From Amoebidium appalachense (lineage: Eukaryota > Protista > Ichthyosporea), in NCBI GenBank assembly GCA_963693365.1, contig CAVNZM010000010.1, positions 1,178,001 through 1,242,000 of the forward strand: DNA of 64,000 nucleotides. The letters run 5' to 3'. Every line of letters starts with the position of its first letter. Position 1 is the stretch's first letter. Positions 28,101-55,800 of this stretch are shown here, piece after piece. The position numbers and the translations under genes are program-made. The notes under the pieces were generated by a model. That model had not been told where the DNA came from and ran no database searches. It saw nothing but the letters and a program-made list of their open reading frames with translations.

Positions 28101-30309
28101 GCCGTTCTATAATGTTCCACAACATCGGTAAGGCTGCGGAAGTGACGGTTGCCAATGGTGTACGTCACCTGCCCGTTACGCATCTGGATGTGGATAAATC
28201 AACCATTAGTGTTCTTTCAAACTCTGAAATATATATCTATATGTATAACACTAATGCAAAGCAAGGAATGGGAGGAGGGGAAGGGAGGGGGGGGGGGGGG
28301 GGGGGGGGGGGGTGGGAAGGGGGGAGTGTGTGTGTGTGTGTGTGTGTGTATGTGTGTGTGTGTGTGTGTGCCCGCGCGTGCGCACACACGAGTGACTATG
28401 AGTGAGGGGGTTTTGAATGCGTCAAAAAGTACGAAGTACACAAGAACAAACGGATAACACGATGCAGAATGCAAGCCATACATAAAGAGTATGCATAATA
28501 AGCAGAGCCCATCCTCAGGGGGGGCCCACGTCATCCACAGTACCCGAGTTTCGACCTATTCCCCTCGTTAACGAAACCCAACTCAGATACTGTTTCACTT
28601 GAACATGAGTAGGTCACCCGTGAGGGGGTGGGTGGTTGGGGAAGTGGAGAGGGGGACCAGAGAGGGGTGAATGGGAAAGGGGGGGGGGGGGGGGGGAGGG
28701 GGGGGGGAGAAAGTGAGAGGGGAGCGAGGAGAGGGGGGAGGTAAAGGGGAGAAGGGGGGGGGGGGGGGGGGAGAGAGAGAGAGAGAGAGGGAGGGAGAGA
28801 GAGGGAGAGGGAGAGGGAGAGAGAGAGAGAGAGGGAGGGAGAGAGAGAGAGAGAGAGAGAGAGAGAGAGAGAGAGAGAGAGAGGTGGGAGGGAGGGCGAG
28901 AGAGAGCAAAGGCGAAGGCAAAGCGAGGATGGAGAGAGAGGGGGGAGGGGGAAGAAAGGGTGCGAAGGCTCGAGCGGCGAAGGGGGGGGAGGGGGGGGGG
29001 GGGGGGGGAGAGAGAATGAAAGAAAGAGAGAGGGAGAGGAGGGAGCGGGGTAAGCAAGGAGAGAAGGAGGGGAAGAGGGGGCGGGGGGAGGGGGGGGGGG
29101 AACGAGCATGCACCGGGAGAATCAAATCCTAAGGGACAAGAGGAGAGCCAAAGGCTTTAAGCAAGATCAGAGACAAGCCATCGGGCAGGTGGAGGCAAGG
29201 GGGCGAAAGGAACAGAGCATAGTATCAATCTCTCTATCTCTCTCCCTCTCTCCCTCTCTCCCTCCCTCTTTCTCTCTCTCTCTCCCTTCCTCCCTCCCTC
29301 TTTCTCTCCCTCTTCCTCTCCCTCTCTCCCTCCCTCTTTCTCTCTCTCTCTCTCTCTCTCTCTCTCTCTCTCTCCCCCCCTCTCTCCCTCTTCTATCTCA
29401 TTCTCTCTCTGTGTGTGTGTGTGTGGGGGGGGGGGGGGGGGGGGGGAGAGAGGGGTAGCCCACACCTCTGCCAACCAAACGTATCTCTCCTTCTTATCTA
29501 TCATGCCTAACAGAAAAGGTGGGCCTTAAGGGGGTAGATGGAGGGGCAGCGCCAGCATGGGAACAAAAACAAAGATTGCAGGAGGAGGATGGAAAGAGGC
29601 ATGTAGAATTGAAGTATGTTAATTCTAACTGGCGTCCACCGCCCCCCCTCCCCCCCCCGCCCCCCCCTCCCCCCCTCCCTCCTCCCCCTTCCCCCTCTCC
29701 CCATATTTGTTTGGTGACTCAACCTCCCCTCCCTCCCCACCATTGTGGACTCTCTCGAACCCCATCCCTAGTGCTCTCTTTCCTTCCCTCCCTGTTATGC
29801 TGTCGAGTCCAATCCTGCCTCTTTCATGAGGAAACGACTGCAGCCAAAGGGCCGAATGCATAGAACACACATTCAAAAACAAATGACTGCCAGCTCGGAA
29901 ACAGTGGGTTCTTTTCTCAACGACAACCATGCCAAACACGACGTCCATGGCAACACTAGATCTGCAAGCAAACGAGTCTACAAGGAAAGATCCAACATGG
30001 AAAAGAGAGCAATCAAAAGCAAAAACAACCCCCTAACAACAAAAAAGAAGCGGGATCTCTTCTTGTTTAAAAAAAAAAAAGCCCGAACTATAAAGAAGCA
30101 CATTGTAAAACCCATACCTGCTTGACAATTGTGAAGTTGCGCACGAACGGATCCACGCGGAAAGAGAGCACAAAGGAGCCAGGTACACTCTGACTGTCTC
30201 TGATCAGAAAACTCCTGTGTGTTCCCTTTGTGCGTAGAAGACCCATCGACCCCCGTCTGTCGAGCCCCTCGTAGTAGTAAGGAACGTCATCTTCCGAAAC
30301 CATGGCCAT
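25151..30309 (-). CDS. SH2- and RGS-domain protein, 5 exons (~374 aa)
   Basis: Exons 30118-30309, 28047-28183, 27511-27615, 26277-26711, 25151-25405, all GT-AG. SH2: FLIRDSQSVPGSFVLSF...FRSLTDVVEHY. RGS: FEEWLESERMEENILFL...EVNIS...FDEA...DAYPRY. Exon 2 needs one extra C in the run at ~28098-28102 to keep frame (probable sequencing error). Confidence 0.88.
28411..28621 (-). mobile_element. Structured non-coding interspersed element, 5'-truncated copy, in intron 1 of SH2-RGS
   Basis: Near-identical to 53619-53828. Confidence 0.85.
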
Positions 30310-31002
30310 GTTTATGTGTTTCTGGTAACCTCGAAGGTGAACTGGCGAATTTATGTGTGTGATGTGAGCCGATGTTATTTTGGGAGTGTGTAAACTGTAA
30401 GAAAGAGAATAAGAGCAGAGAGCAAAGGCTTGTAGCAATAACAATGTCCAAGGAGATGAGTTCGAAAATGGAAAAGTTTTAGGCGATCTGGTAAAGATGA
30501 AGCAGCGAATGACACCTGTGTCACGAAGACGGTGCTCCAAATCAGTATGAATGGAGCGGACACAAACCCAGATGCACCCGTTTTTCCTAACTTAATAGCA
30601 CGGTAAAGCACCTTTTTGAATCTTTGTAAAAGTTGAGTAGCAAACTTTCACCGTATTCACCCTTACAAACCACCAACTTGAACCAAAATCAGAAATCCGT
30701 CCCAGAAACCCCTCTCATTTCAGCCGAGTTTTTTTTCGTTCTTTTTTTTGGGGGGGGGTTGAAAGGTGAGTGACGGCACAAAAATGAGACACGAATCGTG
30801 AGGCCGCTGGTGGCGTCATAGATGGCTACAATAGTCTACAAAGCGTAGACGCATACTTTAGTGATACGACATCGACGTGACCTCTAAAGTTTAAAAACAG
30901 AATTCTTTTGACTGGCATGGATTATTACTTCCTCTCCCCTCTTTCCTCCCCTCTCTCTCCCCTTCTCCCCTGGGCACAAATACAAATAAACCCCGCAATA
31001 GT

Positions 31003-52846: not shown

Positions 52847-55800
52847 TTACGCAGATGAATTTGTTGGATCTGAAGGAATTTCGTTCCCTTCGATGGGCGC
52901 TGAGGTGTCTATCAACATACCGTGTTGCTGCCTGCGCCACAAGTCTGCGTAATGCCCATTTTGGGCAAGAAGCTGTTTAAAGACAAAGGGTTAGAGTGGC
53001 TCCTTTAACTAGGGAGTATGTAAGTTCCTTTAATGGTGGCAATTGTCATAACCATTTTAATGATTCAATAATAAAGAAGTTAAAATGATTCCAAAAACCT
53101 GTTTTGCTTTTTAAAACACCTATAGAAACAATCGAAATTCCTTTTGAATCCACAACTCTCCCTTCATATTTTCTTACAGTTGATGGTTCAGGTAATGCTC
53201 GTCCTACAATTGTTTACAAGAATAATTATCATAGCAGAATACGTGAAGCAATATGACACCGTGGGCTTCAGGTTCAAGGTGCACATGTTCGCAATTGGTC
53301 AAAAACAAAAACAAAAAAGGAGAGAAGAGGTCATTGGATGGCGGAGTGAAATGACTTGAATAGCGAACAAGTGTACAAACGGGGTATCAGGGGAAAAAAG
53401 AGAGGCGGCATGGGGGGGGGGGGGGGGGGGGGGGGGGGGGGGGGGGGCAAATTGCATGTGGAAGAATAACACCCGTAACACGGAGGGGGAGGGGGGACAA
53501 ACACAGTAGATATCACAAACTTTACACAAATGCGCATCATTACCAGAGCCCCCCCCCCCCCCCCCCCCCCCCCCAGTGGTGAAGAGAGAGAGAGGGGGCC
53601 CGGGGGGGGGGGGGGGGGTTTGAATGCGTCAAAAAGTACGAAGTACACAAGAACAAACGGATAACACGATGCAGAATGCAAGCCATACATAAAGAGTATG
53701 CATAATAAGCAGAGCCCATCCTCAGGGGGGGCCCACGTCATCCACAGTACCCGAGTTTCGACCTATTCCCCTCGTTAACGAAACCCAACTCAGATACTGT
53801 TTCACTTGAACATGAGTAGGTCACCCGTCTTGATCAGAGACGAGCAGGGTTGCTTATGGGGGGGGGGGGGGGGGGGGGAGGAAGGGAGGGAGAGAGGGGG
53901 GGGGAGACAGAGAGAGATGGGGGAGGGGGAGGGAGGGAGGGAGGCAGAGAGCGGACGGAGAAAGAGAGAGAGAGATGGGGGAGGAGGAGGGGGAACAGAG
54001 AGATGGGGGCAGGAGGGGGGGGGGAGATAGAGAGATAGAGAGGGGGAGAAAGGGGGGGGGGGGGGGGAGGCAGAGAGAGAGAGAGAGAGAGAGAGAGAGA
54101 GGGAAGTGGTACCGTGGTGGTGGAGGTATTGTGTGTGTGTGTGTGTGTGTGTGTGTGTGTGTGTGTGTGTGTGTGTGTGTGTGTGTGTGTGTGTGTGCAT
54201 GCTTTTTTATTTTTATTTTTATTTTTTTTCTTTTCTTTTTTTTTATTTTTTTTTTTTTGGGGGGGGGGGGGGGGGGAGGGGGGAGGGAGGGAGGGAGGGG
54301 TGTGTAACACAACACACCTCATAGTGGTTGCCCTGTTCGACCACCACCCCCCGATCAAGCACGATTATGAGATCGGCATCGGTGACCGTAGATAGTCGAT
54401 GGGCGATGAAGATCATGGTCCGATTGTGTGCGATCTTGCTCAGGGCCTTTTGGATGTTCATCTCCGTGCGGGAATCAAGAGCACTGGTGGCTTCATCGCA
54501 TAGAAGAATCCTGTTTTTAATTTTTAGTTTTATTTTTTATATATTATTTTTGGTGTGGAAGGGAGGGGGAAGGCAGGAGTTAAAGAACGCGCGGGGGGGG
54601 GGGGGGGGGGGGGGGGGGGAAGTGGTCAGGGGGCATTGGGGGGGAAGGGGGTGGGGGGGAGCGTGGGGTTAGAATGTGCTACAGAGTACGAACCACAATA
54701 TCAGACAGACAACACCATGGAGGCTCTGCAACTGAGAGCACACACACAAAGCATCTGCGTGGGGGGGGGGGGGGGGGGGGGGGGGGGGGGTAAACGTATG
54801 AGTTTGAGGGTATCTGAGTTTGCATATGCGTGATGTGTCTGTGCGTGCACGCTCATAGACAAGAATCGCACAAGCAAAAGTGACACACACAAGCACACGC
54901 ACACGCACACACACGCGCGCGCACACATACACAAACACACACACACACACACACACACACACACACACACACACACACACACACACACACACACACACAC
55001 ACACACACACACACACACACACACACCCACCCACCCACCCACCCACCCACCCACCCACCCACCCACCTTGGGTTCTTGAGTATCGCTCTGGCAATTGCCA
55101 CTCTCTGCTTTTCTCCTCCCGAAAGCTTCAACCCTCTTTCCCCAACCTGAGGAATTTCGCGTAAATATCCCCCCCCCCCCCCCCCCCCCCCACACACACA
55201 CACCCACCCACGCACCCACCCCGTTCCACAATATCGAGAGAAATATAGAGAGAGAAAAGGGATACCAATCTGTGCGTGTGTGCGTGTGTATGTCTGTGTG
55301 TGTGTGTGTGTGTGTGTGTGTGTGTGTGTGTGTGTGTGTGTGTGTGTGTGTGGTTGTGTGTGTGTCTCTTTGTGCGTGTTTGTGTGTTGCAAGCCAGGGA
55401 GGGGGAGAAGGGCGCCGGGGGAGGGAGGGAGGGGGGGGGGGGGGAAGGGTGGAGACAGACAGACAATCAGAATTAGGAAGAGGGAGGTATGGAAAAAAAG
55501 GTGCGTTAAAGAAGACTATGTAGTGATGACGATTACATTAAGTTCGAACGTGGAGAGCGGGGCAGGGGGGAGAGAGGGGGTGTGGGGGTGGAAGGGGTAG
55601 AAGAAAGGAATATTGGGAGGGAGGGGGGGGGGGAAGGGGAGGAGGGGGGGGGGGGGGGGGGGTAGGTTGATTTGTTGGCACACACATCGGGAGAAATAGA
55701 GAAGAGAGTGATGGTGTCTGCATCAGAAGCTAGGAGTATCAATGGCAAACCAGAACACAAGGAAGGGGATCTGCAAAAAAAAGAAAAAAAAAGAAGAAAA

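Follow-up and report, generated by a model that had tools for sequence, protein, structure and literature searches.

A probable C-run-targeting retroposon family with copies in introns of the ichthyosporean Amoebidium appalachense

In a 64,000-nt stretch of the genome of Amoebidium appalachense (GenBank assembly GCA_963693365.1, contig CAVNZM010000010.1, positions 1,178,001 to 1,242,000; this whole stretch is hereafter the window, and positions are counted from its first letter), a short non-coding repeat recurs inside introns, in the orientation of the host gene and directly before a run of C residues. A preliminary description, made from the letters alone, took it for a non-autonomous retroposon that is always intronic and sense oriented. 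The locus thus raises the question of what moves this element, and whether its intronic, sense-strand seat is a property of its own or a by-product of its target. The repeat is a real, abundant, C-run-targeting retroposon family, more extensive than was then reported. We favor, with moderate confidence, the reading that a trans-acting partner, in all likelihood a Chlamys-type Penelope-like element if the best analogy holds, pastes this non-autonomous retroposon into C-runs by target-primed reverse transcription and that its intronic, sense-strand seat mostly follows the C-runs.

Six intronic copies share a fixed 3′ end and differ at the 5′ end

A profile search of the whole window recovered six clear copies of the family, all on the minus strand, all intronic and all sense to the host gene. 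The copies and their common 3′-terminal motif are as follows.

53619..53857, minus strand: copy C4, 239 nt, in the last intron of ABCB7/ATM1; the longest of the young copies
28412..28621, minus strand: copy C1, 210 nt, with a 5′ end shorter by 29 nt, in a predicted intron of the SH2+RGS gene
45471..45658, minus strand: copy C3, 188 nt, with a 5′ end shorter by 51 nt, in the predicted first intron of the SAM/CCCH-type gene
43525..43797, minus strand: copy C2, 273 nt, second subfamily, followed by C22, in a homology-supported intron
45302..45411, minus strand: copy F5, diverged and 5′-truncated, starting at profile position 134, followed by C26, in a predicted intron
54669..54756, minus strand: copy F6, diverged and 5′-truncated, in an ATM1 intron defined by the transcript-derived protein P0003
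53619..53642, minus strand: conserved 3′-terminal motif TTCGTAC-N7-C(G/A)CATTC-NN-A before the C-run, common to all six copies

C1 and C4, hosted by two different genes, are 100% identical over 210 nt, and C3 differs from both by two substitutions. Over the 169 columns at the 5′ end, C2 and C4 share 78% identity; the 3′ module of C2 is a different one. F5 was recovered by a profile built from C4 and C2 only (E = 2e-5). F6 reached only E = 0.36 with that profile; in a five-sequence set, BLAST matched it to C4 at E = 2e-5 and to F5 at E = 8e-8. F5 sits head to tail behind C3, with about 60 nt of C-rich DNA between them. Two weaker family candidates, with E values of 0.07 and 0.18, were left out of the count of six; both are again minus-strand, sense and genic. 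Nonsignificant, weakly matching 3′ fragments, which may be very old members of the family, were also seen in the sense orientation beside C-runs at 42906-42982, 43854-43935, and 44125-44289 (minus strand).

The hosts, all on the minus strand, are a gene with SH2 and RGS domains, a SAM-domain gene with CCCH-like exons, and ABCB7/ATM1. The introns around C4 and F6 are defined by P0003, and an orthologous Ichthyophonus protein matches the exons on both sides of C2; the introns of C1, C3, and F5 are predicted from splice sites. A protein search with the SH2 exon of the C1 host gene gave no relative, and the C1 intron stays a prediction. One ATM1 exon matches P0003 at 100%, the Ichthyophonus hoferi protein at 96% and that of Sphaeroforma arctica at 85%, which puts the window in an ichthyosporean near Ichthyophonus. 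Pfam detected SAM alone in the second host, which we take to be Unkempt-like.

The 3′ end, at profile position 244, is present in all six copies, whose starts are spread over positions 1, 1, 30, 52, 134, and 153. The stricter motif TTCGTAC-N7-CGCATTC has four matches in the window, all on the minus strand, a number that none of 100 shuffles reached (shuffle mean, 0.00). In C1, C2, C3, and C4 the 3′ end consists of two to four A residues and then a C-run of 5, 22, 5, and 17 nt, respectively, so the shared 3′ end running into a C-run is as first described. The 5′ ends, described as full in two copies and about 30 and 50 nt short in two others, were likewise recovered: C4 and C2 begin at a common ATAAG, and C1 and C3 lack 29 and 51 nt. 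The "full" length rests on the agreement of C2 and C4, and the true 5′ end may lie farther out. The 3′-terminal motif is likely a recognition signal.

The C-runs are target rather than tail

Two copies are bounded by target-site duplications (TSDs).

28402..28411 (3′ half) and 28620-28629 (5′ half), minus strand: 10-bp TSD of C1, ACCCCCTCAC; the 5′ half shares 2 nt with the element
54757-54764 and 54661-54668, minus strand: 8-bp TSD of F6, CCCCACGC, where a C30 run ends on its 3′ side

With both strands counted, the 10-mer has exactly two occurrences in the window; the 8-bp repeat has four, two of them flanking F6. Both duplications include the C-run that follows the 3′ end. Such a run is present on the 3′ side of all six copies, and in C1 and F6 it counts only five and four C, both inside the duplicated target sequence. 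The C-run is therefore target DNA that has been partly duplicated, not an added tail. On the 5′ side, five of the six copies also have C-runs, while C2 instead has 27 other bases before its run. C4, the ATM1 copy, was said to sit between two poly(C) tracts, and indeed C21 (53858-53878) adjoins its 5′ edge and C17 (53602-53618) its 3′ edge. The window holds 115 C-tracts, most of them without an adjoining element. The data thus favor insertion into existing C-runs. Where the preliminary description had left open that the element "targets or creates" poly(C) tracts, the evidence, with the C5 of C1 lying in the duplicated 10-mer, points to targeting.

The same junctions appear beyond the window

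The element was present in 20 of 24 listed public sequencing runs, under eight organism labels; 16 runs are flagged as possibly the origin of this DNA. Contigs covering the stretch of C1 numbered 3382 in run X1, 6740 in X12, and 4957 in X15; run X16, with three contigs only, was left out of the counts. Loose contig ends at the 3′ end (52 in X1, 63 in X12, and 112 in X15) continue, in consensus, into poly(G) on the plus strand. In 9 of the 12 joints listed out of 14, a 5′ end scattered over 28499-28564 passes through a G-rich linker into the 3′ end of another copy at 28406-28414, and one joint connects directly to the 3′ end of another subfamily. Such head-to-tail joints with C-rich linkers could be re-insertions into flanking runs. 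Loose ends also join the same core to C2-like and F5/F6-like 3′ modules, and several subfamilies can be told apart by these modules. In X15, 78 contigs leave the element at its internal C7 and pass into poly(C). In four runs, with the flanks of C1 barely covered, no contig spanned an empty C1 site. The fixed 3′ end, scattered 5′ ends, C-run flanks, and head-to-tail clusters thus appear to hold genome-wide. Together with the six copies and the two TSDs, these junctions support the earlier proposal that the element is a non-autonomous retroposon tied to C-runs, fixed at its 3′ end and truncated at its 5′ end.

A scan of viral and metagenome collections with the core gave no matches, and the 3′ motif had none in viral contigs; seven metagenome matches to the motif showed no similarity beyond it and were judged to be due to chance. 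Contigs of X1 and X15 also contain one genomic copy with a 29-nt insert at 28541-28551, made of three ACCCTA-containing 10-mers and accompanied by an 11-nt duplication, which is possibly another tiny mobile or telomere-like repeat.

The intronic, sense-strand seat probably follows the C-runs

Of the 115 C-tracts, 77 fall within the three genes, and 51 of these 77 have C on the sense strand; across five length cut-offs, the sense share of genic C-runs was 0.67 to 0.72. For an element whose 3′ end always abuts the C-strand of a run, the probability that four of four copies are sense is then 0.19 to 0.25, and that six of six are sense is 0.08. The corresponding probability that four of four are genic is 0.11 to 0.20. 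The distribution of C-runs explains each bias alone. It is not established that the element is by its nature always intronic and sense, and the seat is probably, for the most part, a by-product of where C-runs lie. A strand-biased target can mimic an "intronic, sense-only" rule. The earlier statement accordingly stands as an account of the six window copies, some in predicted introns, and as a rule of the element it is largely covered by the C-runs. The further suggestion that host pre-mRNA serves as the transcript found no supporting evidence, and the identical C1 and C4 lie in different genes.

It had also been stated that no copy lies in intergenic DNA. This holds for dispersed copies, and one intergenic array carries a similar 3′ motif.

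4852..7802, plus strand: 183-bp satellite, 16 units, intergenic; the unit reads TCGTAC-N8-CACATTC, then C7, then ATAA

The satellite C7 continues with ATAA, as at the start of the element. With a matrix trained on the four dispersed copies, 11 satellite units scored 19.7 to 23.3 with a C-run behind them; none of 20 shuffles reached at least 17 with a C-run, and one shuffle scored 20.1 without one. The best unit matched the full element profile only at E = 0.21. In three DNA runs the satellite is very abundant and almost purely tandem, only 24 to 66 of 2169 to 5243 contigs fitting partly. Its 42-nt 3′-like stretch folds into a hairpin (z = −2.1). The resemblance is suggestive, and we see about an even chance that the satellite is a tandem relative of the element family.

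RNA structure and promoter-like features

With z = −0.2 and −0.1, the whole element gave a fold no more stable than those of shuffled sequences; its 3′ 42 nt were unstable, without a stable hairpin in any of the four dispersed copies folded. One internal structure is predicted.

53731..53818 (C2: 43662-43757), minus strand: a predicted hairpin, central and rod-like, about 85 nt long and conserved between the two subfamilies

The rod gave z scores of −4.3 and −2.4, with bounds chosen after the fold had been seen. Its two outer helices contain three double changes, in a comparison of two sequences only.

ARAGORN found no tRNA genes in the element. Rfam gave no tRNA, 5S, or 7SL match at E ≤ 10 for C4 and the 5′ part of C2, and nothing on the copies better than E = 0.29; for the whole window, 150 of 170 matches are listed, all low complexity and none on a copy. 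Suspected resemblances to 5S RNA, 7SL RNA, and hepatitis delta virus-like ribozymes were not borne out. We also rejected an intronic small nucleolar RNA (snoRNA): the best snoRNA match had E = 3.9, and thousands of contigs and truncated copies differ from a low-copy RNA with intact ends. No complete hammerhead core was found in monomer or dimer on either strand. A stem with a GAAAC half-motif matches Hammerhead_1 at E = 1.7; in C2 neither the putative stem III nor the putative cleavage triplet is conserved. With no complete hammerhead or other known self-cleaving ribozyme found, a retrozyme was set aside. A T5 or T4 run lies 14 to 17 nt before the fixed 3′ end in four of the six copies.

Proposed mechanism and comparison with Chlamys elements

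Target-primed reverse transcription is the established basis for the steps that we propose. The endonuclease of the partner would nick the G-rich strand of a C/G run, and its reverse transcriptase (RT) would recognize the conserved 3′ motif and prime there. Synthesis would often stop early, giving 5′ truncation, and a second, staggered nick about 5 to 10 nt away would duplicate part of the run. New copies would also enter runs beside old copies, giving head-to-tail clusters. Because the 3′ end is set against the C-run, the orientation of a copy would follow the run and its location the distribution of runs.

The likely assignment of the driver to the Chlamys-type Penelope-like elements is made by analogy. 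In the part of PMC9977147 considered here, insertions of Chlamys-9 and the non-autonomous Chlamys-N4 are 5′-truncated, with a median of 128 bp, and all lie in introns, in keeping with where their (C)n target occurs. The parts of PMC8557442 considered here describe (C)n targeting and head-to-tail multimers for non-autonomous Chlamys, with Chlamys mostly devoid of hammerheads; of the three (C)n families of Chlamydomonas reinhardtii, two terminate with AA before a C-run and one with TA. The window element resembles Chlamys-N4_cRei/Chlamys-9_cRei and MRC1 of C. reinhardtii in being short and 5′-truncated and in using a (C)n target in a fixed orientation. It further shares with non-autonomous Chlamys an all-intronic distribution that probably results from the target, the lack of a canonical hammerhead, and 3′ A residues beside the C-run, and its head-to-tail joints may correspond to the Chlamys multimers. 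Unlike Chlamys, it is hosted by an ichthyosporean and was seen here with neither an autonomous partner nor a pseudo-long terminal repeat (pseudo-LTR); the likeness is one of behavior. Its central rod and swapped 3′ modules find no mention for Chlamys in the parts of PMC8557442 and PMC9977147 considered. Small, structured, non-coding and tandem-prone, it is also like retrozymes and like the hammerhead-bearing Penelope-like elements in the covered part of PMC8557442, from all of which it differs in having no complete hammerhead core.

Weighing the alternatives

Several points weigh against a Chlamys-type driver and against a seat that mostly follows C-runs. Among 81 open reading frames (ORFs) from non-genic regions of the window, the only enzymes recovered were the RT of long interspersed nuclear elements (LINEs) and an LTR retrotransposon integrase; no ORF was Penelope-like, with the N-terminal GIY-YIG, CxC and Penelope-type RT of an autonomous Chlamys, a negative that concerns the window ORFs, no protein search having been aimed at Penelope-type RT in this lineage. 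No true pseudo-LTR was found on the six window copies. The Chlamys host tables list green algae, streptophytes, and Physarum, and no opisthokont in the part of PMC8557442 considered. As to abundance, the runs that contain the element may be the source of this very DNA, and the summed contig depth of 0.8 to 1.5 million, against about 6 to 66 for individual listed contigs, is no copy number, from which only "thousands or more" can be inferred. The joint probability of a sense and genic location under the C-run null is 0.02 to 0.05 for four of four copies and 0.004 to 0.012 for six of six, values to be read with the caveats that copies cluster (C3 with F5, C4 near F6) and are not independent and that the pattern was noticed post hoc; a further bias beyond the C-run distribution may act. 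Lastly, both subfamilies carry an A-box-like 12-mer at +22 and a B-box-like 9-mer at +95/+101 with one mismatch each, a pair that was found in 94 of 5000 shuffles, with windows chosen post hoc.

These boxes would suit a short interspersed nuclear element (SINE) transcribed by RNA polymerase III (Pol III), with a structured head and swapped tails, moved by a C-run-specific LINE, that is, a non-LTR element; targeting would be the same, and promoter and driver would differ. Core-SINE families combine one core with alternative 3′ modules, and the window element, at 240 to 270 nt, non-coding, very abundant, and with clear TSDs, is similar to SINEs with a conserved core and LINE-derived tails. It departs from them in that no tRNA, 5S, or 7SL head was detected, it ends in neither poly(A) nor a simple repeat, an oligo(T) lies in its 3′ motif, and it matches neither of the two window LINE 3′ ends compared. 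The T4 to T5 runs could stop Pol III early, and the window LINEs end in poly(A). We therefore regard a SINE origin as unlikely. A bias intrinsic to the element, by copying from host pre-mRNA, by transcription-coupled insertion or by a purge of antisense and intergenic copies, appears improbable to us. All six clear copies and the two weak candidates are sense and genic, with the joint probability of about 0.01 for six in its favor; each bias alone, however, fits the C-runs, the copies are clustered and carry no host intron sequence along, and the satellite, as a possible relative, is intergenic and on the other strand. The all-intronic pattern in Chlamydomonas, moreover, follows the target in the covered part of PMC9977147.

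One fixed end and tandem arrays would also fit HUH elements, and a non-autonomous rolling-circle DNA element, Helitron- or Replitron-like, with the fixed end as its nicking origin, has to be considered; we judge it very improbable. The variable end of the window element is shortened internally by up to about 150 nt, in a one-sided, progressive manner that sets it apart from Replitrons and Helitrons, its termini share no repeat besides the target run, and its 3′ 42 nt form no stable hairpin in the four dispersed copies folded. According to the part of PMC10288648 considered, insertion of Rep transposons has a fixed orientation and a short target and the TSDs of Replitron-1 vary, both of which resemble the behavior seen here. 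The same source gives Replitrons short terminal direct repeats and fuzzy ends that reach into the flank of the parent, and most HUH elements leave no TSD, whereas two copies here have one. We find it hardly credible that the tracts are created by the element itself from a poly(C) tail that it carries: the long runs after three of the six copies (17, 22, and 26 nt) would suit it, and it is contradicted by the short runs within the duplicated targets of C1 and F6, by the 5′-side C-runs and by the many tracts without an element.

Novelty and meaning

The literature searched contained no (C)n-targeting retroposon of ichthyosporeans, and the Chlamys supplement (PMC8557442) names no such host in the part considered. 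Within the portions covered, PMC11244446 and bioRxiv 10.64898/2026.05.21.726589 do not mention "Penelope," nor PMC11244446 "SINE"; their repeat libraries may include the family unnamed. Under the Chlamys-type reading, the class of mechanism is known; what would be new is a (C)n-targeting driver in a relative of animals. We tentatively raise the possibility that the element is a passenger of the first opisthokont Chlamys-type Penelope-like element, or of a LINE with a new C-run specificity, that thousands of its insertions duplicate and lengthen intronic C-runs, building poly(C)-rich introns, and that a head-to-tail derivative became a major satellite. Should such a driver be found, either the range of Chlamys-type Penelope elements would extend to unicellular animal relatives or a LINE specificity not seen before would come to light. 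Studies of Penelope-type target priming, named as an open task in the covered part of PMC8557442, would also have a convenient substrate in a 240-nt RNA whose 3′ motif is defined and whose copies include young, identical ones with clean TSDs.

Other mobile DNA and neighboring genes

The 3′ ends of two window LINEs, compared with the element, gave no match (best E = 0.48). The LINE copies are listed below.

33270-35925 (plus strand), 12736-13899 (minus strand), about 13900-16400 (minus strand), and 23969-24032 (plus strand): frameshifted LINE copies with RT

The copies at 33270-35925 and 12736-13899 share 92% identity, and both terminate in CCAGTC-poly(A). The one at 12736-13899 abuts a more divergent LINE copy, and 23969-24032 is a 64-nt 3′ LINE fragment. 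The 3′ part of an LTR retrotransposon occupies 1-2450 (plus strand), with Pfam matches to integrase and SH3, a C-terminus that by eye looks chromodomain-like, and a probable LTR whose end lies directly ahead of a C27 run. Two overlapping ORFs at 11531-12119 (minus strand), in the repeat region, have no Pfam match, and the first (11531-11917) has no usable Atlas match. At 20556-22388 (plus strand) lies an intronless ORF of 611 amino acids with several hydrophobic segments and no Pfam match.

Among the host genes, the one at 25154-30310 (minus strand) apparently joins an SH2 domain and an RGS domain. The neighboring genes at 39900-47600 and 52850-64000 (minus strand) have as best named matches the consecutively numbered Ichthyophonus models Ihof_evm14s13 and Ihof_evm13s13, a numbering that suggests conserved gene order. 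A 23/25-bp minisatellite lies within an ATM1 intron at 59170-59840.

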